A stretch of 64,000 nucleotides of DNA from Anaerovoracaceae bacterium (GCA_050953425.1 JBMNMQ010000007.1:232408-296407), one strand, 5' to 3'; positions 7,557 through 25,457 are shown, counted from the first letter of the stretch. Numbers and translations: made by a program. The notes: a model not told the origin generated them from the letters alone.

Positions 7557-9412
7557 TGGCGGAAAACAGACGAAAATCGGGCGTGGCACCGCACGGAGGG
7601 CCGGGCAGTCTCGGTGCGCCGGGAGAAAAGGCGAAGAATTTCCGCGGTGCCGTGAAGCAGCTGTTCGCCTATATGGGTCGGCTGCGCTTTGTGGTCGTAC
7701 TGGTGATGGCCTTCGCCGGCATCTCTACTGTCTTTTACGTCATCGGGCCGAAGGTGCTCGGTCACGCAACGACAGAGCTGGCGGAAGGCCTGATGCGCAA
7801 GATCAACAGCACCGGCGGCATCGACTTTGAACGGATCCTGGATATCCTGCTCTTTGCGCTGATCCTCTATGCGGTCAGTTCCCTCTTTTCCTTTCTCGAG
7901 GGCTGGCTGATGAACGAGGTCACGCAGAAAGTCTGCTACCGTATGCGGCGGGATATCTCGGAAAAAATCAACCGCATGCCGATCCGCTACTTCGAGAGCC
8001 GCACCTACGGCGAGGTGCTGTCGCGCATCACCAACGACGTCGATACCCTCGGTCAGGGGCTGAACCAGAGCGTGTCGATGCTGATCACTTCGCTGACGAC
8101 GATCGTCGGGGTGCTGGTCATGATGCTGAGCATTTCGCCGCTGATGACGCTGATCGCGGTGGTCGTGCTGCCGGTCTCGGCGGTTCTGCTGAGCCTGCTG
8201 GTGCGTGTGTCACAGAAATATTTCCGCCGCCAGCAGGATTACCTCGGCCGCATCAACGGACAGGTGGAGGAGAATTTTGCCGGTCAGCAGATCATCAAGG
8301 CCTTCGGGCGCGAAAAGAAAACCATCGACGCTTTCGAGGAAACCAACGAGACGCTCTGCGATTCGGCCTGGAAATCGCAGTTCCTCTCCGGCATCATGAT
8401 GCCGGTGATGGCGTTTGTCGGCAACCTCGGCTATGCAGGCGTGGCCATCGCCGGCGGCTTTCTCGCCATCAACGGCGTCATCGGCATCGGCGACATTCAG
8501 GCCTTCATCCAGTACGTCAAGAATCTGACGCAGCCGCTGCAGCAGATCGCCCAGGTGATGAATCAGCTGCAGTCGATGGCCGCTTCGGCCGAGCGCGTCT
8601 TCGAGTTCCTCGCCGAAGAGGAGGAGAAAGCGGAAGACCGCGAGACCGTCCGTCTCGAGCGGGTCGAGGGTGCGGTGCGGTTCTCCCATGTGCGCTTCGG
8701 CTACGATCCGGCGCAGCCGATCATCCGCGATTTCAGCACCGATGTGCAGCCCGGTCAGAAGATCGCCATCGTCGGTCCGACCGGTGCCGGCAAGACGACG
8801 CTGGTCAAGCTGCTGATGCGCTTCTACGATGTCGATGCCGGCAGCATCTCTGTAGACGGCCATGATCTGCGCGATTTCGAGCGCCGGCAGCTGCGGCAGC
8901 ACATCGGCATGGTGCTGCAGGATACCTGGCTGTTTTCCGGCACCATCCGCGAGAACATCCGCTTCGGACGGCTGGACGCCAGCGATGACGAGGTGGAAGC
9001 CGCGGCGCGGGCGGCGCACGCCGATCACTTCATCCGCACGCTGCCGGACGGCTACGATATGATCCTCAATGAGGACGCGACCAACGTCTCGCAGGGGCAG
9101 AAGCAGCTGCTGACGATTGCCCGCGCGATTCTCGCCGACCGCCGCCTGCTGATCCTCGACGAGGCGACATCCTCGGTCGATACCCGCACCGAAGAACTGA
9201 TTCAGGACGCGATGGATCGGCTGATGGCGGGGCGCACGAGCTTTGTCATCGCCCATCGCTTATCGACGATCCGCAATGCCGACCGCATCCTCGTGCTGCG
9301 GCACGGCGATATCGTCGAGCAGGGCACGCACGACGAACTGCTGCAGCGCGGCGGTTTCTACGCCGAACTCTATCAGTCGCAGTTTGAGGACATCGAAAAA
9401 GCCGCCCTCTGA
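7556..9412 (+). CDS. ABC transporter ATP-binding / permease protein, the heterodimer partner
   Basis: 618 aa. Walker A GPTGAGKTT, signature SQGQKQ, Walker B ILDEAT. Its start ATG overlaps the stop of the upstream half-transporter (tgATGg). Confidence 0.85.
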   Translation: MAENRRKSGVAPHGGPGSLGAPGEKAKNFRGAVKQLFAYMGRLRFVVVLVMAFAGISTVFYVIGPKVLGHATTELAEGLMRKINSTGGIDFERILDILLFALILYAVSSLFSFLEGWLMNEVTQKVCYRMRRDISEKINRMPIRYFESRTYGEVLSRITNDVDTLGQGLNQSVSMLITSLTTIVGVLVMMLSISPLMTLIAVVVLPVSAVLLSLLVRVSQKYFRRQQDYLGRINGQVEENFAGQQIIKAFGREKKTIDAFEETNETLCDSAWKSQFLSGIMMPVMAFVGNLGYAGVAIAGGFLAINGVIGIGDIQAFIQYVKNLTQPLQQIAQVMNQLQSMAASAERVFEFLAEEEEKAEDRETVRLERVEGAVRFSHVRFGYDPAQPIIRDFSTDVQPGQKIAIVGPTGAGKTTLVKLLMRFYDVDAGSISVDGHDLRDFERRQLRQHIGMVLQDTWLFSGTIRENIRFGRLDASDDEVEAAARAAHADHFIRTLPDGYDMILNEDATNVSQGQKQLLTIARAILADRRLLILDEATSSVDTRTEELIQDAMDRLMAGRTSFVIAHRLSTIRNADRILVLRHGDIVEQGTHDELLQRGGFYAELYQSQFEDIEKAAL

Positions 9413-9503
9413 GGGGAGGACGGCCGATATGTTCGCAGACGGCCGGATCGGGCGGCAGGCGATGCGGCTTTCCCGGCGGACGGACAGTATGGATCCCGGC
9501 TGC

Positions 9504-10004
9504 TCAGGGTTCCGTGGAATCCCGGCTTTTTTCACTGTCGCCGGATTTCTCTCCGGCCTTCGCGTTCTCCTTCAGCGCGCTGCGCAGATTGTCGAGCGCC
9601 ATGGCGATCAGCCGGCGGAAGGTCGTGACCTGTTCTTCGGTCATGCCGCTGGTGAGGATCTGCTCGTATTCTTCTTTTTTCTGATTCAGAACCGGAATGA
9701 TGGCTTCTCCCTTTTCCGAGAGCATGAGCTGATAACGGCGCTTGTCGGCGGGATCCGGCCGGCGCGTTACATAGCCTTCGTCGATCAGAGAACGGGTCAT
9801 GCGGGCCACGGCACCTTTGTTGTAGCCGAGGCGCTGGGAAATCTCATCCTGGCTGAAGCCGGGGTGCCGGGCGATCGTCAGCAGCAGGACCGGATGACTG
9901 ATGTCGAACACGGCACTGCTTTCATCGTGTCCGCTGCGGATGTATTTGGTGCTGCCGCGGTGCAGCAGGGATAAATCGTTGAATATGGTTGTCCTGGTAC
10001 TCAT
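9504..10004 (-). CDS. MarR-family transcriptional regulator
   Basis: I chose an internal start at MSTRTTIF... with an aggagg RBS; the track ORF over-extends through a GC-rich upstream region. Winged-helix signature (GYNKGAVARMTRSLIDEGYVTRRPDPADKR). Confidence 0.8.
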   Translation of the reverse strand: MSTRTTIFNDLSLLHRGSTKYIRSGHDESSAVFDISHPVLLLTIARHPGFSQDEISQRLGYNKGAVARMTRSLIDEGYVTRRPDPADKRRYQLMLSEKGEAIIPVLNQKKEEYEQILTSGMTEEQVTTFRRLIAMALDNLRSALKENAKAGEKSGDSEKSRDSTEP

Positions 10005-10498
10005 GCTGTTTCCTCCTGTAAAGCGGCGGGAATCGGGCGGGGCCGTCAGATCCGGCGCGGCCGCAAAGTGTTTGCCGCCGCAACTATTATAACGCAGGGA
10101 AGAAATGGTTGTCAAGTCAACAATGCATTTTGCGGCTTTCCGGATTTTCGCACGGCCGTCCCGTGCGCCTTCCTGTTTGCCCGCGCTTCCCGCGCGGCTT
10201 CTCCGCGGCCGGCGCAGATTGCGCCGGTTTGCGCCGTCGTCCACGCCGTCCCGCGACTGTCGAAGCAGCCGCATCCTCGCGGATCTTAGATCTTCGCGGC
10301 AGACGGCCTCGAAGCGCGCACAACCAGGGGACGGGGCATCAACCCGCTTTTTCACTCTGTGACCGGTCACCCCAGTTAACAGTAGAAAGCGCCGCGTGAA
10401 TGTCTTATAATAAGATTGGTATCGGCGTTTCAGCCTGTTTTCAGAGCCCGATGCGAAAATAAGCGGGCAGCAGGACAAAACACGCACAGGAGGCGTTC

Positions 10499-11185
10499 AT
10501 GATCTTGGAAAAAACGGATTCCTTTACTCTGGAACTGACAGGCATCCCCGAGCCGCTGCGGCCGATGGCCGAGGAGGCGCAGAAATTTGTCGAAGTGCGC
10601 AATGTCTACCATTCGGCGATTCGGGAAGTCAGCACTAAGCTGGAGATCCTCGACGACGAGTTCGAAGCGCGCAACGACTACAACCCGATTCATCATATGG
10701 AGAGCCGGGTCAAATCGATCCAGAGTATCTTTGAAAAGCTCGAGCGCAAGGGACGCCCGCTGACGATCGACGGCATCCGCACGCTGACGGACATTGCCGG
10801 CATCCGGGTGATCTGCAACTATATCGACGACATCTATACCATCGCCGATCTCCTGCTCAAGCAGGATGATATCGAGCTGGTTCGGGAAAAGGATTACATC
10901 GCGCATCCGAAGGAAAGCGGCTATCGCAGTCTGCATCTGGTGGTGATCGTGCCCGTCTTCCTCGCCGAGCGCACGGAAAAAATCCCGGTGGAGATTCAGA
11001 TCCGCACCATCGCGATGGATACCTGGGCTTCGCTGGAACACGAACTCAAATACAAGAACAAGGGCAGTATCAGCGAGGCGGCGCAGCGCGAACTGCAGCA
11101 GTGCGCCGAAGCGGTGGCGGACATCGACCGGCGGATGCAGCGCATCCATCGGGAGATGGGTCTGCAGAGTGAAGAAGCGGGTTGA
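10499..11185 (+). CDS. relQ: Small alarmone synthetase (RelQ/YjbM-like GTP pyrophosphokinase)
   Basis: 228 aa. RelA/SpoT synthetase-domain motifs (DIAGIRVICNY, GYRSLHLVV, EIQIRT). Its size and sequence are housekeeping RelQ-like. Confidence 0.85.
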   Translation: MILEKTDSFTLELTGIPEPLRPMAEEAQKFVEVRNVYHSAIREVSTKLEILDDEFEARNDYNPIHHMESRVKSIQSIFEKLERKGRPLTIDGIRTLTDIAGIRVICNYIDDIYTIADLLLKQDDIELVREKDYIAHPKESGYRSLHLVVIVPVFLAERTEKIPVEIQIRTIAMDTWASLEHELKYKNKGSISEAAQRELQQCAEAVADIDRRMQRIHREMGLQSEEAG

Positions 11186-11278
11186 CGATGCCCCCGGGCC
11201 GGCCGCGGAGGACGGCTGCGGAGTGTATCATGAATTGGCCTGCCGGCAGGCGCCGGCAGCGGGAAAGGGTGAAAGAAG

Positions 11279-11728
11279 ATGAATTTTTTCGGCGGCAGAT
11301 ACGGCAATGACCAGCTCGGCGTCTTTCTGATGATCGTCTCGATCATCTGCGAGATCGCCGGTGCGCTGGCCCATCTGCGCATTTTATACTATCTGGGTGT
11401 GCTTCTCTTTGTCCTGATGTTTGCGCGTATGTTTTCCCGCAATATCTACCGCCGGCAGGCGGAAAACGAGCGGTTCATGCTCTTCTGGAACCGCATCCGC
11501 AACTGGAACTACTTCCGGCGGCAGCGCCGCGAGCAGAAGCGGCAGCAGCAGAACGGCACCTACTATTACGATGAAAAGGAACGCGCCCGCAACGGCCGCG
11601 GCGGAAAGACAGTGTACTGCTACTATTACTGTCCGTCCTGCCGGCAGCAGGTCCGCATTCCGGCGGGCAAGGGAAAGGTGAAGGTGACCTGCCCGCGCTG
11701 CGGTACGGTGTTCGACGCGATCAGCTGA
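11279..11728 (+). CDS. Membrane protein with a C-terminal zinc ribbon (hypothetical)
   Basis: 149 aa. Two predicted TM helices, a basic linker, then CPSC...x18...CPRC. Confidence 0.5.
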   Translation: MNFFGGRYGNDQLGVFLMIVSIICEIAGALAHLRILYYLGVLLFVLMFARMFSRNIYRRQAENERFMLFWNRIRNWNYFRRQRREQKRQQQNGTYYYDEKERARNGRGGKTVYCYYYCPSCRQQVRIPAGKGKVKVTCPRCGTVFDAIS

Positions 11729-11871
11729 GCGTGCCGGTAAACGGCGCTTGGCCCTGTCTGTGCGTTCGGGCCGCATTCGGGCCGCATTCGGGCCGGCTGC
11801 AGCGGATGCACCCGGCCGCCTGATCAGGCCGTCTCTGCGGGTGATCTTCCGGTGCCTGCCCCGGCTGTCCG

Positions 11872-12066
11872 TTATTTTTCCTCCAGCGATTTTTCCACCT
11901 CGTCCATGCGCCCCAGCACCAGTTCTTCGGGCAGGCTGACCTGCCCGCATTTGGGACAGCGGGGTACCTTGTGGCGAAAGTTCTTGTTGAGATAGGTGAA
12001 CTGGACGTCGATCTCCTCCAGCTCCACTTTGCACCGGTCACACAATAATTTCCGTTTTTCTGCCAT
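11872..12066 (-). CDS. YgiT-type (MqsA N-terminal-like) zinc-finger protein, 64 aa
   Basis: CDRC...x20...CPKCGQ with a spacing that matches the YgiT-type finger family as I recall it. A strong RBS (ggaggagg) is present, and the ATG lies 29 nt inside the 3' end of the upstream 761-aa gene, so the two are translationally coupled. Confidence 0.6.
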   Translation of the reverse strand: MAEKRKLLCDRCKVELEEIDVQFTYLNKNFRHKVPRCPKCGQVSLPEELVLGRMDEVEKSLEEK

Positions 12067-14323
12067 TGAAGACCTCCTCCAGTTCGATGTGCATGCGATG
12101 CGTGTAGAGATTGACGATCGTGTAAGTATCGCCGTCGACGGCGTATTCGACCCAGCAGGTGATGCTGCCGAGTTCGCGGTAGCATTTGTAATGCCCGTTT
12201 TCCGGATCGACCGTGCGGCGGCCGTGCTGTTCGCCGACGTCGAGGACGTCGCAGAGATCCGATTCGAGCAGGCGCAGGCCGTCCATCTTTTTCTGCACCT
12301 CCGGCGGGATCACCAGCCGGTAGCGGCTGGCGGCCGGCTTTTCTTTCATTTCCATGTTCAGCACCTCTTTCATCAGCCGTTCCTTGACGATGACCTTGTT
12401 GCGGCGGCGCTGCGTCTCCGTCGGCGGCTCGGCGCTGTCGTCGCTGTCGACGTCGAAGAGCGCGCCGAGGATGTGACGCACCGGTTTGCCGTGGTCGCGG
12501 AAGATATCGCGGCAGTTGATGCAGTAGACGAGATAGGGATCGTCCGACTGCGCGGCACGCTTTTCGTTGACGTAATCGACGTATTCATCGTCGGCGATCA
12601 GCGGAATGCCGCCGTAGCCGCAGCAGCCGGGCGGGCCGGGCAGCTCGTCGAGCGTTTCCGCGGAAGCCGCGGCCAGCTCGCGCACGGCCGCTTTCATGCC
12701 CTCGTCGTGGCGTGCCTGGCAGGGGTCAAAGACCGCCCAGTGTCCCGGCAGCGTCCCGCCGGCGGGGGTCTCAAAGCCCTCGTCCCGCAGCACTTCGTAG
12801 AGCGAAATCAGCGGGATCTGCGGCAGGTAGTCGCGCAGGTGCTGCATGCAGGAAGGGCAGGCGACGATCAGCTGCGGTGAGCCGATCGCTTCCCATTCCT
12901 GCCGCAGTTTGTCGATTTCCTCCTCGTGCAGGTCCTCCTCGCCGGCCCAGTCCGCGGGGATGCCGCAGCAGCGCAGCAGCAGACCGGTGCCCGGCGCGTG
13001 TTCGCGCAGCCACAGATAGGGCCGGATCACGTAGTCGGGATGAGCGCTGCCGAGCCAGCAGCCGGGGAAGAAGGCGCGCGCCCGGCCGCCGGCGACGTCT
13101 TCCCGCGGCTGCGGCGCGATCGAGAGGGCGGCGCAGGGACCGTTGGAGAACTCCATGTCGCGGATCCAGAACTGGTGCCAGCCGCCCGGTGTCTTGTTCT
13201 GCTGGTGCAGCAGATAGCGGGACTCCTTGAGCATGCTGTCGAGGTCGATGCCGGCCGGGCAGACTTCCTCGAAAATGCCGGTCTGGTTGCCGGTGCTGAT
13301 CAGCCGCTTGGCCGGGCTCTTGGAGACCAGCGACTCGCCGGCTTTGGTGGAAAAGAGGATATCGTCGCGCATTTCCCGCGGCCACTTGCCCATGTAGGGG
13401 GAGAGGTCACAGTAGACCTGACAGGGATTGCAGCGGCAGCGCAGACAGCGCTGTGCCTCGGCCCGGGCTTCCTCATCCGTAAAGAGACCGTTCTCGCCGC
13501 TCGCCGCCACTGCCAGCGCGGATTCCGTGAAGCTGGTGTCGAAGACGATTTTGGTCGGTTCCGGCGGCTGCGGAAAGACACCGCGGCCGGTGCGGAAGAA
13601 GTAGTCGATCGCCTCGGCGGCACGGATGCCGAAGGCCATCGCGTGGAGCGCATCGAGTCCGTGGACGCCGCCGCCGGCGAGGATAAAGCGCCCGCCTTCT
13701 TCAAAGACGCTCTCTTCAATGCCGAAATCGCTGCCGCCCGCGCCGGTGGCAATGAGGACGGCGTCAAAGTCGTCGACTTCTTCGAGCGAGGTGATTTCCC
13801 GGTCGCTGCGCAGTTCGTATTCTTCGTATTTGAACTGCAGCGCCAGATCGGCTTCAACCAGTTCCTCCGGCAGCTGTTCGTAGAGAGAGCCGCCGACCCG
13901 GCTGCCGCGCTCAAAGATCGTGACGGCGTATTTCTGCGCGGCCAGTTTGATCGTACAGGCCAGACCGGCAGCGCCGCCGCCGATGACGGCTGCGGTTTTC
14001 TTGCGTGCGGGCAGATTCAGCTCCGGCGGATCCTTGCGGCGGGCACCGGCGAGGCAGGTCTGCTCGAGTCGGTGCAGCTGCACCGGATCGTCGAGCTTGC
14101 TGCGGACGCAGGCCTGCTCGCAGATGCCGGGACAGAGCGCACTGGCGATGGCCGGAAACGCCATCGCCTTGCGCAGCTCCTTGTAGGCCGGATTATAGCG
14201 TCCGGCCTTCATCTTGTCCTGAAAGGCGAGGACGTTGACGCGGAACGGACAGGCGTCCTCGCAGAACGGCGGTTCGCTCTGCAGGCAGTGGTCAAACTGG
14301 TTGTAATAGGTCTCTACGGCCAT
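12038..14323 (-). CDS. Multi-domain iron-sulfur flavoprotein: GltD/PreT-like N-terminal Fe-S plus FAD/NAD(P) domain, 2x[4Fe-4S] ferredoxin, two HdrD-type CCG cysteine-rich domains, and a C-terminal DUF4258-like domain
   Basis: 761 aa, one continuous frame. Motifs: CPGICEQAC (GltD-like), the Rossmann motif AAVIGGGAAGLA, CLRCRCNPCQVYC and VCPAGID (ferredoxin), FFPGC..RCCG..ACPSC and FDPC..GCCG..YCINC (CCG domains). The C-terminal ~100 aa resembles the DUF4258 fold pattern. Confidence 0.75.
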   Translation of the reverse strand: MAVETYYNQFDHCLQSEPPFCEDACPFRVNVLAFQDKMKAGRYNPAYKELRKAMAFPAIASALCPGICEQACVRSKLDDPVQLHRLEQTCLAGARRKDPPELNLPARKKTAAVIGGGAAGLACTIKLAAQKYAVTIFERGSRVGGSLYEQLPEELVEADLALQFKYEEYELRSDREITSLEEVDDFDAVLIATGAGGSDFGIEESVFEEGGRFILAGGGVHGLDALHAMAFGIRAAEAIDYFFRTGRGVFPQPPEPTKIVFDTSFTESALAVAASGENGLFTDEEARAEAQRCLRCRCNPCQVYCDLSPYMGKWPREMRDDILFSTKAGESLVSKSPAKRLISTGNQTGIFEEVCPAGIDLDSMLKESRYLLHQQNKTPGGWHQFWIRDMEFSNGPCAALSIAPQPREDVAGGRARAFFPGCWLGSAHPDYVIRPYLWLREHAPGTGLLLRCCGIPADWAGEEDLHEEEIDKLRQEWEAIGSPQLIVACPSCMQHLRDYLPQIPLISLYEVLRDEGFETPAGGTLPGHWAVFDPCQARHDEGMKAAVRELAAASAETLDELPGPPGCCGYGGIPLIADDEYVDYVNEKRAAQSDDPYLVYCINCRDIFRDHGKPVRHILGALFDVDSDDSAEPPTETQRRRNKVIVKERLMKEVLNMEMKEKPAASRYRLVIPPEVQKKMDGLRLLESDLCDVLDVGEQHGRRTVDPENGHYKCYRELGSITCWVEYAVDGDTYTIVNLYTHRMHIELEEVFNGRKTEIIV

Positions 14324-14392
14324 CCCCTTTTTCCTCCTTCAAAAAATCTGCAGACCGCCGGAAGCGGTCTGCAGAGCACGTTAGTGAATTCT

Positions 14393-17269
14393 TTATTCGT
14401 CGGTCTTGATCGGATTCGCCTTGATGTTTTCGACTTCTTCCCAGAAATCGGAACCGAGGAAGTACTTCTTCGGCTTGAGCGGATCCTTTTCGCCCTTGGC
14501 CATCGCTTCGAGTCCGGCCTTGACCTTCGCCGGTGTTGCCGGGATTTCATAGACGCGCAGGCCGGTCGCGTTGTTGATCGCGTTGATGACGGCCATGTGG
14601 TCTGCCGACTGGAACGCTTCGGAAGCGCCGGAGGAACCGAACGGCCCTCTCTCGTCGTAGGCGTCGATGCCGATGTTGACGAGTTTGTCGGGAACATCCT
14701 TGATCGTCGGGACGCCGCAGCGGACCATGTTGTTGTCCTTCTTGACGTCTTCGTAGTTTTCACTGAGCGCGAAGCCGATCGCGTGCGAGACGCCGCCGTT
14801 GATCTGGCCTTCGACGGACTGACTGTTGCCCGGTCTGCCGATCCAGTAGACGGTGGTCATGCCGAGAACCTGCGTCTTGCCGGTCTTGACGTCGACTTCG
14901 ACTTCCGACATGAACAGCGAATAGGTATAGGCATAGGTCGGGTTGCCGGAACCGTCGTTCGGGTCGAGGTCGCAGAAGTAGTCCCATTCGCTGCGGGTGG
15001 TCCAGTTGCCCTCGTAGCGGGTCGGAATGCCTTCGTCGATCATTTCCTGATAGGTCCGGTAGGTGCCGTCCTCTTTGCGCATCGCGTTGGCGAGATTTTC
15101 CGCGGCCAGGATCGAGGCCTTGCCGTTGGCAAAGTGCGATCTGGAGCCGGCCGACTCGCCGGTGTTCGGACAGTACTTGCTGTCGTCCTGAACGAGGCGG
15201 ACGCAGTCCGGCGTGATGTCCGGGAAGTACGGCCGCAGCGCTTCCAGCGTGCAGACGAGGGAACCGGCGTCGCCGCCCTGTCCCTGATCCTGCCAGGTGT
15301 CGTATTTGACGAATTTCATGTCGCCCTCGAGTTCGATGGCGACGTTGGCTTCATCGACGTCACCGAGGCCGACGTTGTAGCCGCCCCAGGCGATGCCGAC
15401 GCCGCGACGCTTCTCCGGCGTGTCCTCGGCCTTGGCCCTGGCCACCGCTTCATCGTACAGCGGCTTCAGCTTCTTCATCATCTCTTCCATCGGGTACTGC
15501 AGGAACGGGTACTGGTTGAGGTTGTCCTGCCCCGGACGGGCGATGTTTCTCCAGCGGAACTCCCACGGATCGATGCCCGCCTTCTCGGCCAGCATGTCGA
15601 CCAGCGCTTCGCTGGCGGTGTAGGCCTGCGGTGCGCCGTAGCCGCGGTAGGCGGTGCCGAAGCAGTGGTTGGTGATGGCCACGCGAGCCAGACCTGCCGC
15701 ATTCGGGATATAATATGGATAGAACATGAAGCGAAGGATCTTGGTCAGCTTGTCGTCGCCCAGTTCCGGATAGGCACCGTGGTCGAGTCCGGCGTCGAAT
15801 TCGCCGGCCGTAAAGTGACCGTCCTTGTCGCAGGCGAGCTTGCCGTTGATGTAGCACGGCGAGCGCTTGCCGGACAGAGCCATGAAGGTGGCGTAGTCCA
15901 TGCCGATCGCGCACGGCTTGCCGGTGACCTTGGTGGCGATGCCGGCCATCGCATAGCTGTAGGCGGACATCGCCCAGCCGAACGAACCGCCGGTCGGGTT
16001 TTCGATGACGCGCAGCTTTTCGACCGGGATGCCGATCGCTTCGGCCATATCGTCGCGGTCAAAGTAGAGCGTCATGGTCTTGCAGTGGACGCAGAGGTTG
16101 TCGTCCTCGTCGTAGTAGGCCTGAATGGTATCGCCCTCGATGGAGCAGTGCGGCTCACGAGAGGAGTAGAAGCTGCCCTCGACGCTGTAGGCGGAGTCGT
16201 CGATGATGTCTTCGAGGTGTTCGTGGTCACCCTTCAGCACCGGCTGGATCGAGTAGATGTTCTGATCCATCGACGGGTGAATCGGCTTGGCGTCCGGTGC
16301 GACCGCTTCCAGATAGCTCATGTACTCCGGCAGCTGCTCGATTTCGACCTTGACTTTGGCGGCCGCCGCTTCGGCGTGCTTTCTGGTGTCGGCCGCGACC
16401 ATCGCGACAACGTCGCCGTAGCTGTAGATTTTCTTATCCTGAAGGATGGTATGGATCTGATCGAATTCCACGGTCCGCGGCGAGAACGTGTAAGCCATCA
16501 GGCGGTTGGCGCCGGGAACATCCTTGGCGGTGATAACCTTGTAGACGCCGGGCATCTTTTCCGCTTCGCTGTAATCGATCTTCTTGATGTTGGCGTGGCT
16601 GGTAATGCGCGGCTGTACCAGAGCAACCTTGAGGGTCTCGGCCGGCATGTGCAGCTCGACGTCGTCACCGTAGTCGCAGACGCCGCAGGCCTTGGCCATC
16701 GCGTTCGGACGAACCAGCGGCTTGCCGTAGAATCCGTCCTTGACGTCCTTGCTCCAGTCGTAGGTGATGTCTTCGTAGGTCTTTTCGCCTCTCATGATCG
16801 CGGCAGCGGCCATGACGGCGTCGACGATCTGCTTGTAGCCGGTGCAGCGGCAGATGTTGCGCTTTTTCTGGAACCAGTCTCTGACTTCTTCTCTGGTCGG
16901 ATCCGGGTTTTCCTCCAGCAGTGCATAGGCGGAAACGATGAAGCCCGGTACGCAGAAGCCGCACTGCACTGCGCCCAGATTGACCCAGGCATACTGCAGC
17001 GGATGCGGATGCCGCACGGTGCCGATGCCTTCGATGGTCAGCACTTCGCTGTATTCCTTGACATTCTTCATCTTCTTGGTGCAGGAACGTACAACTTTGC
17101 CGTCGAGAATGACGGAGCAGGAGCCGCAGACACCGGTACCGCAGCCGACCTTGGTCCCGGTCAGCCCGATGCGGCGCAGCACGTCGGACAGAGTGTCTTC
17201 CTGAGGATCACAGATAAACATGCGCTCGGCGCCATTGATCCTCAGAGTAAACTTGCTGTAGTTACTCAT
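14393..17269 (-). CDS. Molybdopterin-dependent aldehyde oxidoreductase (Mop-like; [2Fe-2S] domains fused to the xanthine-dehydrogenase-family Mo-binding subunit, no FAD subunit)
   Basis: 958 aa from the ATG at 17269 (ggagg RBS). The track's 963-aa ORF starts 5 codons earlier. N-terminus carries CGTGVCGSCSV and QCGFCVPGF..CRCTGY, the two [2Fe-2S] motifs. The rest is the Mo-binding aldehyde-oxidase / XDH-family domain. Confidence 0.85.
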   Translation of the reverse strand: MSNYSKFTLRINGAERMFICDPQEDTLSDVLRRIGLTGTKVGCGTGVCGSCSVILDGKVVRSCTKKMKNVKEYSEVLTIEGIGTVRHPHPLQYAWVNLGAVQCGFCVPGFIVSAYALLEENPDPTREEVRDWFQKKRNICRCTGYKQIVDAVMAAAAIMRGEKTYEDITYDWSKDVKDGFYGKPLVRPNAMAKACGVCDYGDDVELHMPAETLKVALVQPRITSHANIKKIDYSEAEKMPGVYKVITAKDVPGANRLMAYTFSPRTVEFDQIHTILQDKKIYSYGDVVAMVAADTRKHAEAAAAKVKVEIEQLPEYMSYLEAVAPDAKPIHPSMDQNIYSIQPVLKGDHEHLEDIIDDSAYSVEGSFYSSREPHCSIEGDTIQAYYDEDDNLCVHCKTMTLYFDRDDMAEAIGIPVEKLRVIENPTGGSFGWAMSAYSYAMAGIATKVTGKPCAIGMDYATFMALSGKRSPCYINGKLACDKDGHFTAGEFDAGLDHGAYPELGDDKLTKILRFMFYPYYIPNAAGLARVAITNHCFGTAYRGYGAPQAYTASEALVDMLAEKAGIDPWEFRWRNIARPGQDNLNQYPFLQYPMEEMMKKLKPLYDEAVARAKAEDTPEKRRGVGIAWGGYNVGLGDVDEANVAIELEGDMKFVKYDTWQDQGQGGDAGSLVCTLEALRPYFPDITPDCVRLVQDDSKYCPNTGESAGSRSHFANGKASILAAENLANAMRKEDGTYRTYQEMIDEGIPTRYEGNWTTRSEWDYFCDLDPNDGSGNPTYAYTYSLFMSEVEVDVKTGKTQVLGMTTVYWIGRPGNSQSVEGQINGGVSHAIGFALSENYEDVKKDNNMVRCGVPTIKDVPDKLVNIGIDAYDERGPFGSSGASEAFQSADHMAVINAINNATGLRVYEIPATPAKVKAGLEAMAKGEKDPLKPKKYFLGSDFWEEVENIKANPIKTDE

Positions 17270-17284
17270 GAATGTAGCCTCCAA

Positions 17285-17604
17285 ATCGATATGTTGGGTG
17301 ATAAAAATGATACGTTGTTACAGCTTACCGCGGCTGCGAAAACAAAAACCTCTGCGTTTGCAAAGGTTCTGGACAGCGTCCCAGACTGCCGGCTGTCAGC
17401 GGCCGCCGCGGGAGTTCGCATTTCTCCGATCCTTTCCAAACATAGCAGGTCGCTTCGCTTTCACGAAAGACCCGTCAAACTGCGTTCCTGGCATCCAGCG
17501 CTGCACAGCACGGGGACGCGGCAGATCCGTCAGTCTCGGATGCGATATGGTGGTTTTTTTTTGATACGCAAATAATCGCGAGTGCCTGTAACGTACTATT
17601 AAAT
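17285..17604 (-). promoter_or_regulatory. ~320-nt structured 5' leader (candidate Moco/Tuco-type riboswitch with a terminator expression platform)
   Basis: The long leader contains several hairpins (cuuucgugaaag, cggagaaaugcgaacuccc, cugggacgcuguccag) and the intrinsic terminator. The downstream genes encode a molybdoenzyme. Confidence 0.4.
17338..17370 (-). terminator. Intrinsic terminator inside the 5' leader of the aldehyde oxidoreductase operon
   Basis: Minus-strand RNA AACCUUUGC-AAAC-GCAGAGGUU followed by UUUUGUUUUC. A 9-bp stem with one G.U pair, about 70 nt upstream of the start codon. Confidence 0.7.
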
Positions 17605-17610
17605 ATACCA

Positions 17611-17640
17611 GTTATCTGCAGGAAACTCAACGCCTGCGGG
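17611..17640 (-). promoter_or_regulatory. Sigma-70-like promoter for the leader / aldehyde oxidoreductase operon
   Basis: On the minus strand: TTGAGT-17nt-TATATT. Confidence 0.4.
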
Positions 17641-17715
17641 CGAATCAATTTCAAGAAATGTGTATTAATTTTGAGAATTTTTGGAGAGGCAATGATATTG
17701 TTGCTGCACCAACAA

Positions 17716-17910
17716 TCATTTGACGGCGTAAAAGCGCAGCCAGCAGATAAACGCAAAGAGCAGGCCGCCGAAGATGGTGCGGGAAATGACGCCGTCCATA
17801 ATTGCCGGTACTTTCCAGAGCAGCAGTCCGACAGCCAGAGCAACCGGGATCAGGATGCCCCAGAATTTTTTGTGGTCAATTGGTCGCATTTGCGTTTTCC
17901 TCCGATCCAT
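17716..17910 (-). CDS. Small hydrophobic membrane protein (hypothetical)
   Basis: 64 aa with two predicted TM helices (ILIPVALAVGLLLW, FGGLLFAFICWL). An alternative internal start, MRPIDHKK, has a ggagga RBS. Confidence 0.4.
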   Translation of the reverse strand: MDRRKTQMRPIDHKKFWGILIPVALAVGLLLWKVPAIMDGVISRTIFGGLLFAFICWLRFYAVK

Positions 17911-17944
17911 TGTATTTTATAGTTTCAGGAGAGCAAAGTCAATG

Positions 17945-18150
17945 CAGGCGGCGGATTTTGCCGCAAATAATTATCCCGGCGGTTTCCGTCGTCAGCATCG
18001 CGGGGGAGAAGGAAGCACCGCAGACCATCCGTCCCGGCGGATAGCCGGGTTCCCTCCCCGCGCGGACTTTGCCCGAAAAACAAGTGCACTGCAGGGCGGC
18101 TGCCCGCCGGCGGCCGCGGGAGCGCTGCCCGAAACAGCGCAGGAGGCAGA
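17945..18150 (+). promoter_or_regulatory. Structured leader upstream of moeA (second candidate Moco-riboswitch-like element)
   Basis: Stem gcggcgga-tttt-gccgc, then a 10-bp closing stem cgcgggggag...ctccccgcg enclosing the hairpin cccggcggatagccggg. About 75 nt to the moeA ATG. Confidence 0.3.
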
Positions 18151-19377
18151 ATGTTCACAGATCATATCAGCAAGGAAGAAGCGCTGGCACGCATCCGCGC
18201 TGCCTGGCAGCCGCAGATCAAAAACGAAGAAGTGCCGCTGGCGGAGGCGGCCGGCAGAGTGTGCGCGGAGGACTGCCGCGCCCGTGTCTCACTGCCGGTC
18301 GTGCGTGCCGCCGGCATGGACGGCATCTGTGTCAATTTCGATCTTCTCGCCGACGGTATCCCCGATACTTCGGCATGGCGGCGCGGCCGCGACTACGATC
18401 GCGCCGATACCGGCGATGATTTTGACGACCGCTTTGATACCGTGCTGCCGATCGAATGGATCCGTTCCCGCGAGGACGGCGGGATCGACATCGACATGCC
18501 GGCCGGGCGGCCGGGCGGCGGCCCGAAACTTCACCGCGGCATGAATGTGCAGCCGGCCGGCGGCATGCTGGAACAGGGAACGCTGCTGGTGCACGGCGGC
18601 ACGGCGCTGACGCCGCTCGATCTCGCGGCGCTGGCGGCCGGCGGATACGGCAGCGTGCGCGTGCTGCGCCGGCCCCGCATCGCCTTTCTGGCTGCCGGCA
18701 GTGAACTGGTGGAGGCCGGGGCACCGCTGCGGCGGGGGCAGAATTACGACGCCAATACACCGCTGGCGCGGGCGCTGCTGGAAGAGATGGGCGCCGCGGT
18801 GACCTGCGGCGGCATCCTCGGCGACGATCGGGAAGCGCTGGGCAGCTGGATCGACACGCAGCTGCCGCAGCAGGATCTCGTCCTCGTCAGCGGCGGCTCC
18901 TCAAAGGGCGAGGAGGATTACAACACCCGCCTGCTGGCGGCGCGCGGAGAACTGCTCTTCCACGGCGTGCTGGCGGCGCCGGGCCGGCCGATGAGCGCCG
19001 TCGTCTGCGGCGGGCGCACCGTGCTCCTCAATCTCGCCGGCCCGACGCTGGCTTCCTGGCACGGCCTCGAGTGGTGCGTGCGCGAGCTGATTCGCGACTG
19101 GTACGGCGGCGCCCTGCCGCGGGAGAACGAGGTCGAGGCCGTTCTGGAAGCTGACCTGCCGGCACCGCCGCTGTCGCTGATCGTGCGGCTCATCGTCCGC
19201 CGCGGCGAGGACGGCCGGCTTCTGGCACGGCCGATTCTCGGCAGTCGGCCGGCCGGCGGCGGCCGCCCCGGCCACCCCTGCATTGCCCAGCCCGATGCCA
19301 ACGCGGCGCTGGTGACGCGGCCCGGTGAACCGGCGCCGCAGAAGGGCGACCGCGTGCGCGTCAGGCTGGTGCGCTGA
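18151..19377 (+). CDS. moeA: Molybdopterin molybdotransferase
   Basis: 408 aa with MoeA/gephyrin-E architecture. The GGSSKGEEDY motif region is present. aggagg RBS. Confidence 0.85.
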   Translation: MFTDHISKEEALARIRAAWQPQIKNEEVPLAEAAGRVCAEDCRARVSLPVVRAAGMDGICVNFDLLADGIPDTSAWRRGRDYDRADTGDDFDDRFDTVLPIEWIRSREDGGIDIDMPAGRPGGGPKLHRGMNVQPAGGMLEQGTLLVHGGTALTPLDLAALAAGGYGSVRVLRRPRIAFLAAGSELVEAGAPLRRGQNYDANTPLARALLEEMGAAVTCGGILGDDREALGSWIDTQLPQQDLVLVSGGSSKGEEDYNTRLLAARGELLFHGVLAAPGRPMSAVVCGGRTVLLNLAGPTLASWHGLEWCVRELIRDWYGGALPRENEVEAVLEADLPAPPLSLIVRLIVRRGEDGRLLARPILGSRPAGGGRPGHPCIAQPDANAALVTRPGEPAPQKGDRVRVRLVR

Positions 19378-19527
19378 AGTGCGTCTGCCGCTGCGTTCCG
19401 GCCGGCATACATTTCCGTGCGCCATCTGCCCGCCCGTCCTTCGCCGCGATTCCTTCGCGCCGATCTGCCCCGGCCGTCCCCGGCGCGGAAAGCAGAATAC
19501 AAATTCCGTTGACGATGCAGAAAGTGC

Positions 19528-19556
19528 TTGACAGCCGCGGGGGAAGCCGCTAGACT
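19528..19556 (+). promoter_or_regulatory. his operon promoter P1 (TTGACA-17-TAGACT)
   Basis: Read directly: cTTGACAgccgcgggggaagccgcTAGACTg. Confidence 0.5.
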
Positions 19557-19606
19557 GTTACTTGAACGTGATAACACGTTAACGCATTAAAGCGATAAAA
19601 CAGCAT

Positions 19607-19635
19607 TTGGCAAAGTCCGGGTGATCCAGTATAAT
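19607..19635 (+). promoter_or_regulatory. his operon promoter P2 (TTGGCA-17-TATAAT)
   Basis: tTTGGCAaagtccgggtgatccagTATAATg. It sits ~60 nt upstream of the hisZG ATG. Confidence 0.5.
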
Positions 19636-19696
19636 GAAGAGACGGTCTGCACCGCGCAGCAGCGAAGGCGTGCCGGCCGGCGGGAGGTTGAACGAG

Positions 19697-21280
19697 ATGG
19701 GAATTTATGAAACGGCGAATCTGCGGCCGGAGGAGATCGCGACGCTGGAGCTGCGAGCCCTCTACGAGGGACACGGCTACCGCAAGTATAAAATGAGCAA
19801 ATTCGAGGAGTACAGCCTCTATGCCAATAACCGCGATTTCCTCGCCGGGGACAAGGTGCTGACGTTCACCGATCTCGACGGCCGTCTGATGGCGCTCAAG
19901 CCCGATGTGACGCTGTCGATCATCAAGGACATGCATCCCGGCGAAAGTGAACTGGAAAAGCTCTACTATATCGAGAACGTCTATCGCGAAAGCCGCGCCA
20001 GCAACAGCTTTCAGGAAATTCAGCAGATCGGCCTGGAGATGCTCGGCCGCATCGGCCGCGCCGAGATCATCGAAGCGCTGACGATGGCGGCGCAGACGCT
20101 GGCGACGATCAGCGACGCGTACCTGCTGGAGCTGTCGAACATGACCTTCACCGAAGAGCTGCTGCGGACGATGGAGCTCAGCAGCGAGGCGGCCCAGCAT
20201 CTGCTGCGTCTGATTCGCGCCAAGAATGCCGATGGCATCCGCAAGGTGGCGGCAGAGGAAGGACTGCCGCCGGCTGCGGTCGACAATCTCTGTGCGATCA
20301 CGGAACTGTCCGGCCCTGTCGAGGAGACGCTGGAACGGGCGCGCGGGCTGGCCATCAACCGCACGATGCTGGCGGCGCTCGATGAACTGCGGGAGATCAG
20401 CGCCGGCATGAAAGCCGCCGGCGCCGCCGACCGGCTGGTGCTCGATCTCTCGATGGTCAACGACATCGATTACTACAACGGCGTGATCTTCAAGGGATAC
20501 ATCCCCGGCGCCGCCGTCAATGTACTCGCCGGCGGGCAGTACGACCGGGCGATGGCCCTGTTCGGCCGCCGCAGCGGTGCAATCGGGTTTGCTCTCTATC
20601 TCGACGAAGTGGCGCACGGCATCGCCGCCCCGGCCGGTGACCGCGGCGGCATGCTGACGATCGCTCTGCCCAAGGGCCGGCTCGGCGATCAGGTCTACGA
20701 GATCCTCAGCCGCGGCGGCTATGAGTGCGATGCCTACAACGACAAAAACCGCCGCCTGGTGGTCGAAAACCGCGACAAAAACGTCCGCTACATTCTCGTC
20801 AAGCCCAGCGACGTCGCCGTCTACGTCGAGCACGGCGCAGCCGACGTCGGCATCGTCGGCAAGGACATCCTCATGGAGAACGAACCGGACGTCTATGAGC
20901 TCAAGGATCTCGGCATCGGCCGCTGCCGCATGTCGGTGGCGGCACCGAAGGGCTATGTCGATGATCCGGACAAGACGCTGCGCGTGGCGACCAAGTTTGT
21001 CAACGTCGCCAAAAAGCACTACCAGGCGCGCAACCGCGACATCGAAATCATCAAGCTCAACGGCAGCATCGAACTCGGCCCGATTGTCGGCCTCTCCGAC
21101 GTCATCGTCGACATCGTCGAAACCGGCAATACTATCCGCGAAAACAACCTCGAGGTCATCGAGCAGTTCAAGGATATCAGTGCACGCTTCATCGCCAATA
21201 AGACCAGCTATCGCTTCCGCCACGCGCAGATCGACGAAATGGTCGGCAGGCTGGGCAGCGCCCCGGCCGGGCGGGACTGA
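19697..21280 (+). CDS. hisZG: ATP phosphoribosyltransferase regulatory subunit fused in-frame to the ATP phosphoribosyltransferase catalytic subunit (HisZ-HisG fusion)
   Basis: A single frame. The first ~318 aa form a HisZ-like class-II aaRS-like domain. The next ~210 aa, beginning MLTIALPKGRLGD, are short-form HisG. No stop separates the two. I chose the start at MGIYE, which has a gggagg RBS. Confidence 0.8.
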   Translation: MGIYETANLRPEEIATLELRALYEGHGYRKYKMSKFEEYSLYANNRDFLAGDKVLTFTDLDGRLMALKPDVTLSIIKDMHPGESELEKLYYIENVYRESRASNSFQEIQQIGLEMLGRIGRAEIIEALTMAAQTLATISDAYLLELSNMTFTEELLRTMELSSEAAQHLLRLIRAKNADGIRKVAAEEGLPPAAVDNLCAITELSGPVEETLERARGLAINRTMLAALDELREISAGMKAAGAADRLVLDLSMVNDIDYYNGVIFKGYIPGAAVNVLAGGQYDRAMALFGRRSGAIGFALYLDEVAHGIAAPAGDRGGMLTIALPKGRLGDQVYEILSRGGYECDAYNDKNRRLVVENRDKNVRYILVKPSDVAVYVEHGAADVGIVGKDILMENEPDVYELKDLGIGRCRMSVAAPKGYVDDPDKTLRVATKFVNVAKKHYQARNRDIEIIKLNGSIELGPIVGLSDVIVDIVETGNTIRENNLEVIEQFKDISARFIANKTSYRFRHAQIDEMVGRLGSAPAGRD

Positions 21281-21313
21281 GCGGGCAGAAAAATCCCAAG
21301 GAGGTTCTGTTCT

Positions 21314-22372
21314 ATGAGCAGGTTCATGAATGAAAGAATGCGGGATCTGGCGCCCTATGAACCGGGCGAACAGCCGCAGACGGACGAGCTGATCAAGCTC
21401 AACAGCAATGAAAATCCCTATCCGCCGTCACCGGTGGTCAAGCAGGCGGTGGCGATGATCGATCAGGACAATATGCGCCTTTATCCCGACCCCGATACCG
21501 GCCTGGTGATCCGTTCCCTGGCTGCCTACTACGGTCTGCGGGAGGATCAGATCGCGATGGGCAACGGTTCGGACGAGATCCTCGCCTTCGCCTATATGGC
21601 ATACGGCGGACGGGTCTATTTCCCCGAAACCAGCTATGGATTTTACCCCGTATTCGGTACGCTCTTCGACTGCGAGGCGCATCCCGTCCGCATGGATGAC
21701 GACATGCGCATCAAGCCGGAGCAGTACCGCGCCAACGACGGGCTGGTCGTGATCGCCAATCCCAACGCGCCGACCGGCATGGCGCTGACGCGGGCAGAAG
21801 TCGAGGAGATCCTGCGCGCCAACCCGGATCAGGTCGTGGTGATCGACGAAGCCTACGTCGACTTCGGCGCCGAATCCTGTGTGCCGCTGGCGGACAGCTA
21901 TGAGAATCTGCTGATTGTACAGACGTTCAGCAAATCGCGCAGTCTGGCCGGCATGCGGATCGGCTTTGCGATCGGTGACAGCGCCCTGATCGACGACATC
22001 AACCGCGTTAAATTCAGCTTCAACCCGTACAATCTGAGCCAGGAAGCGATCATCGCCGCCAAAGCGGCCATCGATGACGACGAGTATTTCCAGCTGCAGC
22101 GGCAGCGGGTGATCCGCACGCGGGAAGCGTTCTGCCGGGAACTGGATCGGATGGGCGTTTTCTACTATCCGTCACAGGCCAATTTTGTCTTCGCGAAGAC
22201 CGGCTCCGGTGTCTATGAGGCCCTGCGTGAGCGCGGCATCCTCGTACGTCACTGGGAAACGCCGAAGATCCGCGATTTCATCCGCGTGACCATCGGCCGC
22301 GACGAAGACATGAAAAAACTGACTGCGGCGCTGGAGGAAATCCTCGGCGCGCGGCGGCAGGGCGCGGAGTAA
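21314..22372 (+). CDS. hisC: Histidinol-phosphate aminotransferase
   Basis: 352 aa, class-II aminotransferase. Motifs YPDP and TFSKSRSLAGMRIGF with the PLP lysine. Confidence 0.9.
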   Translation: MSRFMNERMRDLAPYEPGEQPQTDELIKLNSNENPYPPSPVVKQAVAMIDQDNMRLYPDPDTGLVIRSLAAYYGLREDQIAMGNGSDEILAFAYMAYGGRVYFPETSYGFYPVFGTLFDCEAHPVRMDDDMRIKPEQYRANDGLVVIANPNAPTGMALTRAEVEEILRANPDQVVVIDEAYVDFGAESCVPLADSYENLLIVQTFSKSRSLAGMRIGFAIGDSALIDDINRVKFSFNPYNLSQEAIIAAKAAIDDDEYFQLQRQRVIRTREAFCRELDRMGVFYYPSQANFVFAKTGSGVYEALRERGILVRHWETPKIRDFIRVTIGRDEDMKKLTAALEEILGARRQGAE

Positions 22373-22477
22373 GCCGCCCCCGGTCGTCCCGGTCGTCGCA
22401 CCCGTCTGGCCGTTCGGCCGCGAACGACCGCAGAGCCCGCGGACAGAGGCGGCGCAGCGGCAGGAAAGGAAGGAACT

Positions 22478-23062
22478 ATGCGTACAGCGGAAATTGAACG
22501 CCGGACCGGAGAAACTCAGATTCGCCTGTGGCTGGATCTGGAGGGGACCGGCAGCTACGACATTCACACCGACAGCGGCTTTATGCGCCATATGCTGGAG
22601 CTCTTTGCGCGGCATGGCCGCTTTGACCTCAGCATCGACTGCAGCGGCGACAGCGACGTCGACTTTCACCACACGGTGGAGGACCTCGGCATCGTACTCG
22701 GCCAGGCCTTTGACCAGGCACTGGGTGACCGCAAGGGGATCCGCCGCTACGGCAGCATGCTGCTGCCGATGGACGAGGCGCTGGTGCTGACGGCGCTCGA
22801 TCTGTCCGGGCGCGCCTGTGTCTGCTATGAGGCCGAACTCAGGGACCGCGTCGGCAGCTTTGACACCGAGCTGGTGGAGGAGTTTTTCCGTGCCTTCGCC
22901 CGCGAGCTGAAGATGACGCTGCATGTGCGGCAGCTCGCCGGCAGCAACACCCACCACATCATCGAGGCGATGTTCAAGGGCCTGGGCCGGGCGCTTGCGA
23001 CGGCCTGCGCCATCGACGAGGACTTCGCCGAGGAAATACCATCGACAAAAGGAGTACTGTGA
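22478..23062 (+). CDS. hisB: Imidazoleglycerol-phosphate dehydratase
   Basis: 194 aa with IGPD motifs (DIHTDSGFMRHMLELF, HHIIEAMFKG). Confidence 0.9.
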   Translation: MRTAEIERRTGETQIRLWLDLEGTGSYDIHTDSGFMRHMLELFARHGRFDLSIDCSGDSDVDFHHTVEDLGIVLGQAFDQALGDRKGIRRYGSMLLPMDEALVLTALDLSGRACVCYEAELRDRVGSFDTELVEEFFRAFARELKMTLHVRQLAGSNTHHIIEAMFKGLGRALATACAIDEDFAEEIPSTKGVL

Positions 23063-23667: not shown

Positions 23668-23776
23668 GCGCCGTGCGCGGGCGAGTCGAACCGCGCAGCG
23701 CCTGCACGGTGCCGACGGAATGAAGCGCCGTGCGCGGGCGAGTCGAACCGCGCAGCGCCTGCACGGTGCCGACGGA
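23668..23776. repeat. 57-bp tandem duplication (2 copies) in the hisH-hisA spacer
   Basis: gcgccgtgcgcgggcgagtcgaaccgcgcagcgcctgcacggtgccgacgga occurs twice, separated by atgaa. Each copy contains the internal inverted repeat gtgcgcg / cgcgcag. Confidence 0.85.
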
Positions 23777-23851
23777 TTGCAGTATCGCAGACGGGCGGAC
23801 CGGGTTCTGCGCCGGCGGATCCGGCGATGCAGCGAAGGAGGAAAACACAGC

Positions 23852-25376: not shown

Positions 25377-25457
25377 GAACAATGGTGAAAATCCGGCTTT
25401 CGGAATAATGCAGGAATGCGGGAGCGAAATGCGCGGCGACAGGAAAGAAGGAGCGAA

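Follow-up and report, generated by a model that had tools for sequence, protein, structure and literature searches.

Why should a molybdoenzyme operon end in two domains that resemble a toxin and its antitoxin? This question is raised by a minus-strand operon at positions 11872-17910 of a 64,000-nt stretch of DNA from an Anaerovoracaceae bacterium (GCA_050953425.1, JBMNMQ010000007.1:232408-296407), the whole of which is referred to here as the window. The operon encodes a Mop-type aldehyde oxidoreductase, a 761-aa electron-transfer partner whose C-terminal segment we call domain X, and a 64-aa zinc-ribbon protein. An initial annotation of this DNA had taken the last ~100 aa of the partner for a DUF4258 domain and the 64-aa open reading frame (ORF) for a YgiT/MqsA-type finger, and had suggested that a domesticated toxin-antitoxin (TA) pair serves as a regulatory or assembly module of the molybdoenzyme complex. 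We consider it reasonably probable that X and the ribbon represent an ancient TA-type pair, with X on the DUF4258/MqsR side and the ribbon on the MqsA/YgiT side, which has been domesticated as a fixed, non-toxic accessory of Mo/W-pterin oxidoreductase clusters. This agrees with the role first suggested, which remains a proposal. The features on which the argument depends are as follows.

14393-17284, minus strand: Mop-type molybdopterin aldehyde oxidoreductase, 963 aa, with Fer2, Fer2_2, Ald_Xan_dh_C, MoCoBD_1 and MoCoBD_2 (Pfam), i.e. 2x[2Fe-2S] plus molybdenum cofactor (Moco)
12038-14323, minus strand: partner, 761 aa, with Fer4_20, a flavin adenine dinucleotide (FAD) Rossmann motif, ferredoxin-type Cys motif(s), two CCG domains, a linker and domain X
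12494-13072, minus strand: two HdrD-type CCG domains, ~aa 418-610 of the partner (Pfam CCG, two stretches)
12089-12334, minus strand: domain X, ~aa 664-745 of the partner, predicted RelE/ParE (BECR) fold, toxin-like
12080-12073, minus strand: Shine-Dalgarno sequence GGAGGAGG for the ribbon gene, within the 3' coding region of the partner gene, with a 6-nt spacer to the ATG at 12066
11872-12066, minus strand: Cys4 zinc-ribbon protein, 64 aa, DUF7479/DVU_1557 family, remotely MqsA/YgiT-like

All four ORFs of the operon, the fourth being a small membrane protein described below, were present in the order, at the coordinates and on the strand first annotated. The strong Shine-Dalgarno sequence, the ATG at 12066 and the overlap of 29 nt between the ribbon gene and the partner gene, whose TGA lies at 12040-12038, were likewise read from the sequence.

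Domain X and the ribbon protein

A homolog search found ~22 full-length relatives of the partner with 30-55% identity, and X was present in all of them. Two independent models gave X a toxin fold of the RelE/ParE type, and we regard this predicted RelE/ParE (BECR) fold as well supported, so that a domain that is unannotated in Pfam now has a fold assignment. In the family alignment W724, H742 and R743 are invariant, and T722, Y727 and Y740 are nearly so. DUF4258 was the only Pfam family to recur among X homologs, with weak matches in 13 of 48 that all fell below the gathering threshold of PF14076 (25 bits), the best having E = 0.0012. One homolog that was inspected matched the profile over nearly its full length (positions 6-70 of 71), the stand-alone homolog P0135 scored 13.8 bits, and Colicin_E5 was matched by 2 of the 48. 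When the same 48 sequences were reversed, none matched DUF4258 and no family was matched more than once. A search of PDB sequences with the X profile returned zero matches. X is not a member of PF14076, and a specific kinship with DUF4258 is plausible and weakly supported by these sequence comparisons. The original assignment of the last ~100 aa to DUF4258 consequently fails as hidden Markov model (HMM) membership, while the toxin fold and the weak matches of the homologs preserve the relationship behind it.

The ribbon ORF is a confident member of Pfam DUF7479 (PF24292; 86.5 bits, cutoff 27) and of NF045645, ‘DVU_1557 family redox protein’ (79.6 bits, cutoff 60). Its relation to MqsA/YgiT was seen through its homologs. 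Among 37 diverse DUF7479 proteins, 25 matched TIGR03830 (‘type II TA system antitoxin MqsA family’; best E = 2.3e-5), which was the commonest non-self match, and 18 matched the YgiT_finger model TIGR03831 (best E = 0.0013). These matches were recurrent but weak, none being demonstrated at the curated cutoff, and generic ribbon families also scored among the 37. Profile-profile alignment (hhalign) of DUF7479 with real YgiT domains gave E = 2.4e-4, and the structural hallmark of YgiT/MqsA is present, namely two CxxC knuckles that flank a beta-hairpin to form the zinc ribbon, followed by a helix. The YgiT/MqsA finger of the initial annotation therefore survives as a remote relationship that links DUF7479 to MqsA/YgiT ribbons, the ORF itself being a DUF7479 protein, and the Cys spacing is CxxC-x24-CPxCG rather than the x20 first given.

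The four Cys are kept in nearly all of 77 distinct ribbon homologs. The protein ends right after its helix, and Pfam and NCBIfam scans found no helix-turn-helix (HTH) or other DNA-binding family in its 64 aa. The C-terminus itself (...vE..lE[DE]K-stop, or E-x3-E-[DE]-K) is nearly invariant in the 77 homologs, with E58, E62 and K64 invariant in the alignment of 37 sequences, and its conservation suggests that the free end of the ribbon may be inserted into, or modified by, a partner. Together with the W/Y/H/R patch of X, this acidic C-terminal helix indicates that something specific is recognised. In a PDB search with the ribbon profile the best match was MasE, the small subunit of (1-methylalkyl)succinate synthase (9o8u_D; E = 0.0013 over 48 positions), and the only other matches were LIM domains. 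MasE, too, is small and Cys-rich, and it serves an anaerobic enzyme as an accessory subunit.

Conservation of the module

The partner matched NF045663 (‘pyridine nucleotide-disulfide oxidoreductase/dicluster-binding protein’, DVU_1558 type) with 623 bits against a cutoff of 530, and the match ran end to end, from residue 11 to residue 747 and over profile positions 10-758 of 759. The last 85 positions of this profile correspond to domain X (the homolog P0173 aligns to 674-758). Since NF045663 covers the C-terminal segment, the segment is integral to a curated family and is no local accident.

A HMMER scan of 1.84 billion cluster representatives with a profile spanning both X and the ribbon yielded 1332 proteins at E<=1e-3, of which 952 also passed E<=1e-10. 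The two domains occur in four architectures: X, X-Zn (X fused to the ribbon), partner-X and partner-X-Zn. With an X-only profile we found free-standing X proteins of 80-108 aa and X-DUF7479 proteins of ~160 aa, in all of which X is unannotated by Pfam, and in four distant partner homologs DUF7479 is fused directly behind X to give partner-X-Zn proteins of ~850 aa. The natural X-Zn fused form was predicted to fold with a pTM of 0.81, the two domains packing in a fixed arrangement in the model.

A scan of one genome per species gave at least 516 loci, from which 80 related genome loci were kept. They come from Bacillota, Desulfobacterota, Bacteroidales, Chloroflexi, Treponema and Holophagaceae, with Anaerovoracaceae, Oscillospiraceae, Peptococcaceae, Desulfosarcina and Desulfovibrionaceae among the taxa represented. 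The order Mop, partner(X), ribbon was nearly universal in the 80 loci and was the same as that of the window in at least 70 other genomes, with the ribbon gene behind X in 77 of the 80. The in-frame fusion of X to the partner was kept in essentially all 80, which answers the question, raised in the initial annotation, whether it is conserved next to Mop-like genes, and makes it the norm of the family rather than a peculiarity of this genome. Since the fusion recurs across the family loci, it is genuine and ancestral for the family; a frameshift or assembly artefact in the window can be ruled out. In one locus (L001), X has a gene of its own, which lies between those for the partner and the ribbon. 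Two of the 80 loci carry an extra X or X-Zn copy directly behind the first (L085:2369-3048 and L082:2718-3175), which means that the module has been tandemly duplicated there.

The module is also found away from the fused partner. Free X plus ribbon, or X-Zn, follows tungsten-type aldehyde ferredoxin oxidoreductases (AFOR) with a small ferredoxin-like protein, often with MoeA; it also stands behind formate dehydrogenase (Fdh)-alpha-like enzymes of the dimethyl sulfoxide reductase (DMSOR) family and behind Mop with an X-less partner. In other loci, free X-Zn modules are immediately preceded by MoeA. Of 42 metagenome loci that were 5 kb or longer, 34 had a Mo/W enzyme gene (Mop in 18, AFOR in 15 and DMSOR-type in 7, these counts overlapping), and the same loci contained genes for a C-GCAxxG-C-C protein (29), the radical S-adenosylmethionine (SAM) (seleno)protein TrsS (25) and a ligase (25). 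The genes that usually follow the module, by NCBIfam, encode a DVU_1556 methyltransferase, the DVU_1555 C-GCAxxG-C-C protein, TrsS and a DVU_1553 PaaK-like/AMP-binding coenzyme A (CoA) ligase, and in some loci a MocA-like NTP transferase of the DVU_1551 family is present, sometimes fused to an HD domain. This DVU_1556/1555/TrsS/DVU_1553 block was found in about half of all loci, irrespective of the preceding Mo/W enzyme (L001, L002, L086-L092, L099-L172 and ~45 of L006-L085), and of the 80 Mop-type genome loci ~45 had it right behind the ribbon gene. A search of 2.9 million viral contigs found no relative of X. The distribution is therefore not the patchy, mobile one of TA systems, synteny being kept in at least 516 genome loci and 42 metagenome loci.

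A probable domesticated toxin-antitoxin pair

The toxin fold of X and the MqsA/YgiT similarity of the ribbon are two independent lines that converge on the same known pairing. When the gene order, the fusions and fissions, the predicted packing, the coupling of the genes, the conservation in metabolic operons, and the absence of both a DNA-binding domain and a mobile context are added to these, a domesticated TA pair is the best explanation. In the window the toxin-like half would covalently tether the module to the C-terminus of the FAD/Fe-S/CCG electron-transfer protein, and translational coupling would supply the ribbon half in stoichiometric amounts. By analogy with MqsR-MqsA, the ribbon would be expected to bind X tightly, and we infer that the X-ribbon pair has lost its toxicity and serves as a built-in docking or assembly device. 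Such a device might offer a further component of the system the invariant acidic C-terminal helix of the ribbon (E-x3-E-[DE]-K), or might keep the Cys4 metal site next to the CCG domains.

Several results weigh against a domesticated pair. The C-terminal 101 or 138 aa of the window partner, taken alone, matched no Pfam family even at E<=10, and the window ribbon ORF had no match to TIGR03830 or TIGR03831 at the same E-value. The profile comparator for X was built from nine published DUF4258-YgiT fusions, of which the DUF4258 halves were used (Gerdes 2025, Table S2, PMC11980606); hhalign of X against it was not significant (E = 0.027 over 70 co-linear columns, with a crossed control of 0.026), and comparison of the two-domain X-Zn and DUF4258-YgiT profiles was co-linear over 138 columns yet gave E = 0.03. 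A Foldseek search of the two-domain model against the PDB found nothing significant. X retains, on its last two strands, invariant residues of its own (W, Y, H and R), which could form an active or ligand site rather than a mere docking surface. Finally, the TrsS, methyltransferase, C-GCAxxG-C-C and ligase genes are absent from the whole 64-kb window; this also means that the role of the module is separable from them.

A bolder form of the proposal, which we rate as rather unlikely, is that X-Zn is a domesticated TA module forming the constant core of a widespread anaerobic pathway and doing something mechanistically new for a TA-derived pair. The pathway would comprise the Mo/W pterin oxidoreductase, the DVU_1556 methyltransferase, the C-GCAxxG-C-C protein, TrsS and the PaaK-like ligase. 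In it, the module could act as a redox-gated nuclease or nucleotide-binding switch, or as a small carrier or adaptor that presents its invariant E-[DE]-K tail to the ligase, the radical-SAM enzyme and the oxidoreductase, an arrangement with a loose resemblance to the zinc-ribbon carrier LysW.

It is also conceivable, if unlikely, that the Cys4 site of the ribbon, as a dithiol/disulfide or a rubredoxin-like Fe, is itself a redox centre in electron exchange with the CCG domains or the Mo/W enzyme, X being a mere docking site. This would agree with the NCBI name ‘DVU_1557 family redox protein’, with the near-constant retention of the four Cys in the 77 distinct homologs and with the second knuckle, which is CPxCG as in rubredoxins. 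Furthermore, X is fused directly behind HdrD-like CCG domains in the Mop-type loci, and such domains act on disulfides in other enzymes; weak rubredoxin-like and (seleno)protein CxxC family matches also occur among the many generic ribbon matches. However, free X-Zn modules beside AFOR or DMSOR-type enzymes lack any CCG protein, the nearest homologs and the structural neighbour of the ribbon (MqsA/YgiT) bind structural zinc, and beyond the Cys residues conservation peaks in the C-terminal helix and not around the metal site. Selenocysteine variants of the Cys residues, suspected from the model name ‘near_Sec’, were rejected, as none of the four positions was replaced by TGA in 83 matches, which likewise speaks against a redox site; the ‘Sec’ in the full NCBIfam model name, ‘diclust_near_Sec’, refers to the neighbouring radical-SAM selenoprotein TrsS.

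A further possibility, to our mind quite unlikely, is that X is a still-active BECR ribonuclease or another phosphodiester- or nucleotide-directed enzyme, restrained by the ribbon and redox-gated by the FAD/Fe-S/CCG protein in a manner comparable to Cami1. Synteny with metabolic genes that spans phyla, the absence of relatives in viral contigs and the housekeeping context would be atypical for a toxin, and a DNA-binding or autoregulatory domain is absent. In addition, the SEH...R...H residues of the DUF4258 comparators are not recognisable in X, where no SEH motif is evident, although the two weak hhalign alignments differ in register and are too weak to fix it, so that residue equivalences between them are untrustworthy.

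Very unlikely in our view is a role for X-Zn as a maturation or cofactor-handling factor of Mo/W-pterin enzymes, with a former RNA-binding fold reused for the pterin phosphate or dinucleotide. The module occurs with each of the three Mo/W families (Mop, AFOR and DMSOR-type enzymes), is often directly behind MoeA and near the MocA-like NTP transferase, and in the window a divergent MoeA gene adjoins its operon. Where a Moco chaperone is dedicated to one enzyme, its gene usually lies downstream of the gene for that enzyme. Against this, some loci (L090, L120 and L137) carry the module with methyltransferase/TrsS/ligase genes and no Mo/W enzyme within 7-8 kb, and the module has no similarity to the known Moco chaperones XdhC, TorD, NarJ and FdhD. 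Convergence, in which X is a small alpha/beta domain that shares only the RelE/ParE topology, the ORF is an ordinary zinc ribbon and neither has TA ancestry, is likewise very unlikely.

The electron-transfer partner

For the partner, the initial annotation had described a GltD/PreT-like FeS-FAD/NAD(P) domain, 2x[4Fe-4S] and two HdrD-type CCG domains. By Pfam and NCBIfam, Fer4_20 (aa 8-92), the FAD-type Rossmann motif (aa 111-205) and the two CCG stretches are all present, and the C...CCG...CxxC patterns were kept in all 22 aligned partner homologs. There was no match to a separate domain for NAD(P)H binding: the GltD-like matches stop at about profile position 238 of 485, and only ~65 aa lie between the two FAD-binding motifs (13574-14008, aa ~106-250). 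A separate NAD(P)H Rossmann domain therefore seems to be absent, and despite its name the partner may not be a user of pyridine nucleotides.

As to the clusters, the partner has a single intact ferredoxin-type Cys motif; the second reads STGNQTGIFEEVCP (13244-13462, aa ~288-360) and lacks three of its four Cys. At this position 19 of 21 aligned homologs have CxxCxxCxxxC, two others (P0003 and P0009) also being partly degenerate. The ‘dicluster’ domain of the window partner can hold at most one [4Fe-4S] cluster of the two.

Genetic context of the operon

The remaining features of the operon and its immediate neighbours are listed here.

17942-17914, minus strand: promoter-like site upstream of the small transmembrane ORF
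17716-17910, minus strand: small ORF, 64 aa, hydrophobic, predicted membrane protein, possibly the first gene of the unit; its sole Pfam hint is a weak CdaA_N transmembrane match
17285-17715, minus strand: leader or intergenic region, 431 nt, between the small transmembrane ORF and the Mop gene
17630-17602, minus strand: promoter-like site in the leader
17370-17345, minus strand: terminator-like hairpin in the leader, ~60 nt before the Mop start codon
14347-14375, minus strand: strong terminator-like hairpin with a 13-bp stem (8 GC pairs) and a T-run, within the 69 nt that separate the Mop stop codon from the start of the partner gene
14220-14192, minus strand: promoter-like site inside the partner gene
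18151-19377, plus strand: MoeA-like molybdopterin molybdotransferase gene, divergent from the operon (Pfam MoeA_N, MoCF_biosynth)
11279-11728, plus strand: membrane protein with a C-terminal zinc ribbon, 149 aa, directly downstream of the operon on the opposite strand
10499-11185, plus strand: small alarmone synthetase, RelA_SpoT domain alone, 228 aa, directly downstream of the operon on the opposite strand

Homologs of the small transmembrane ORF with 40-44% identity were found by tblastn upstream of Mop in two loci, L006 and L016. The leader had been called structured, and a folding signal is indeed present over 17285-17600, although it is modest (z = -2.44) and belongs to no Rfam family; conservation with the same two loci is limited to nt 2-71. 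A Moco or other known riboswitch was ruled out, since a search of 9000-21000 against Rfam (E<=1) returned just two matches, both at chance level and outside the leader. The leader could be an attenuator or an undescribed regulatory RNA. Given the terminator-like hairpin behind the Mop gene, the Mop transcript may be in excess of those for the partner and the ribbon, the downstream pair being served by read-through or by a separate promoter.

The surroundings of the operon are of a housekeeping kind: the divergent MoeA gene, a his operon, the small alarmone synthetase, a MarR regulator and ABC exporters. The his operon (19634-26105) is headed by a gene for a 548-aa protein (19634-21280, plus strand) that joins a HisZ-like (histidyl-tRNA-synthetase-like) domain to HisG (ATP phosphoribosyltransferase). 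A 1549-aa ORF antisense to the partner and Mop genes (12926-17575, plus strand) was discarded as almost certainly a GC-rich artefact, the minus-strand genes being strongly supported.

Comparison with known systems

The cassette and its neighbourhood are already catalogued, in the NCBIfam NF0456xx series and in Pfam DUF7479, which overturns the impression that no equivalent had been described: equivalog models exist for all three proteins and for the DVU_1551-1559 neighbourhood. The window's three proteins all score above cutoff, as in the DVU_1559/DVU_1558/DVU_1557 cassette (NF045668, NF045663 and NF045645); for the Mop protein the NF045668 match is 1133.2 bits against a cutoff of 1100, over profile positions 3-905 of 905. 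Unlike the fuller DVU_1551-1559 neighbourhood, the window has a minimal three-gene cassette, and in its partner one [4Fe-4S] motif is short of three Cys. A TA relationship is not mentioned in the curated names, ‘redox protein’ and ‘dicluster-binding protein’, and searches of the literature for DVU1557/1558 and DUF7479 found no functional description. We found no statement that the C-terminus of DVU_1558 has a RelE/ParE fold or that DVU_1557 is MqsA-like, either in the annotation names or in the literature searched, which excluded the presumed source, Haft & Tolstoy 2025.

TA pairs are regarded as selfish or defence elements. To our knowledge, there are few well-supported cases in which such a pair has become a permanent subunit of core metabolic machinery, and the X-Zn case spans several phyla and three Mo/W enzyme families. 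It would give the Mop-type aldehyde oxidoreductase a conserved two-part accessory, found also with bacterial tungsten aldehyde oxidoreductases and an Fdh-like enzyme, that is absent from current models of these enzymes. The DVU_1551-1559/TrsS neighbourhood, which is biochemically uncharacterised, gains a structural hypothesis, that of a RelE-like domain gripped by an MqsA-like ribbon, which is testable in D. vulgaris Hildenborough.

The closest TA systems are the DUF4258-YgiT pairs. DUF4258 has been placed among 13 BECR-fold toxin families, its function being unknown, and 17 ‘DUF4258-MqsA (YgiT)’ TA fusions were reported in the same study, which makes no mention of an oxidoreductase context (Gerdes 2025, mBio, PMC11980606). 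The pairing assumed by the initial annotation is thus a recognised predicted TA pairing. X and the ribbon resemble these pairs in that a BECR-fold domain precedes a CxxC...CxxC ribbon, whether the two are encoded by neighbouring genes or joined in one protein of 160-200 aa, so that X shares with DUF4258 an adjacent or fused MqsA/YgiT-like ribbon. They differ from them in that X scores below threshold, does not recognisably keep the comparators' invariant Y, S-E-H, R, H, Y-x-P and W, and carries a motif of its own, VTYWVEY...NAYSHRM, and in that the invariant C-terminal helix of DUF7479, which ends in E-[DE]-K, is unique to it. Unlike TA loci, X-Zn is locked in metabolic operons, is often fused to an oxidoreductase of ~660 aa and shows no mobility.

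With MqsR-MqsA of E. coli (PDB 3HI2, 3GN5), sequence identity is at noise level (11-14%). The ribbon lacks the C-terminal HTH-XRE domain of MqsA and, because of this, MqsA-style autoregulation is impossible. In Cami1 (CARF-RelE, PDB 8PHB) a RelE-fold domain is likewise joined to a sensor domain; this protein, encoded in CRISPR loci, is a defence effector whose RNase function has been demonstrated. Here, by contrast, the partner of the RelE fold is a flavin/Fe-S/CCG redox protein, the setting is a metabolic operon and there is a dedicated ribbon. On the enzyme side, the catalytic subunit of the window, an NF045668 equivalog, has the same domain organisation (2x[2Fe-2S] plus Moco) as MOP of Desulfovibrio gigas. 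In the classical picture of that enzyme flavodoxin is the electron acceptor, and a downstream partner with X and a ribbon protein falls outside it.

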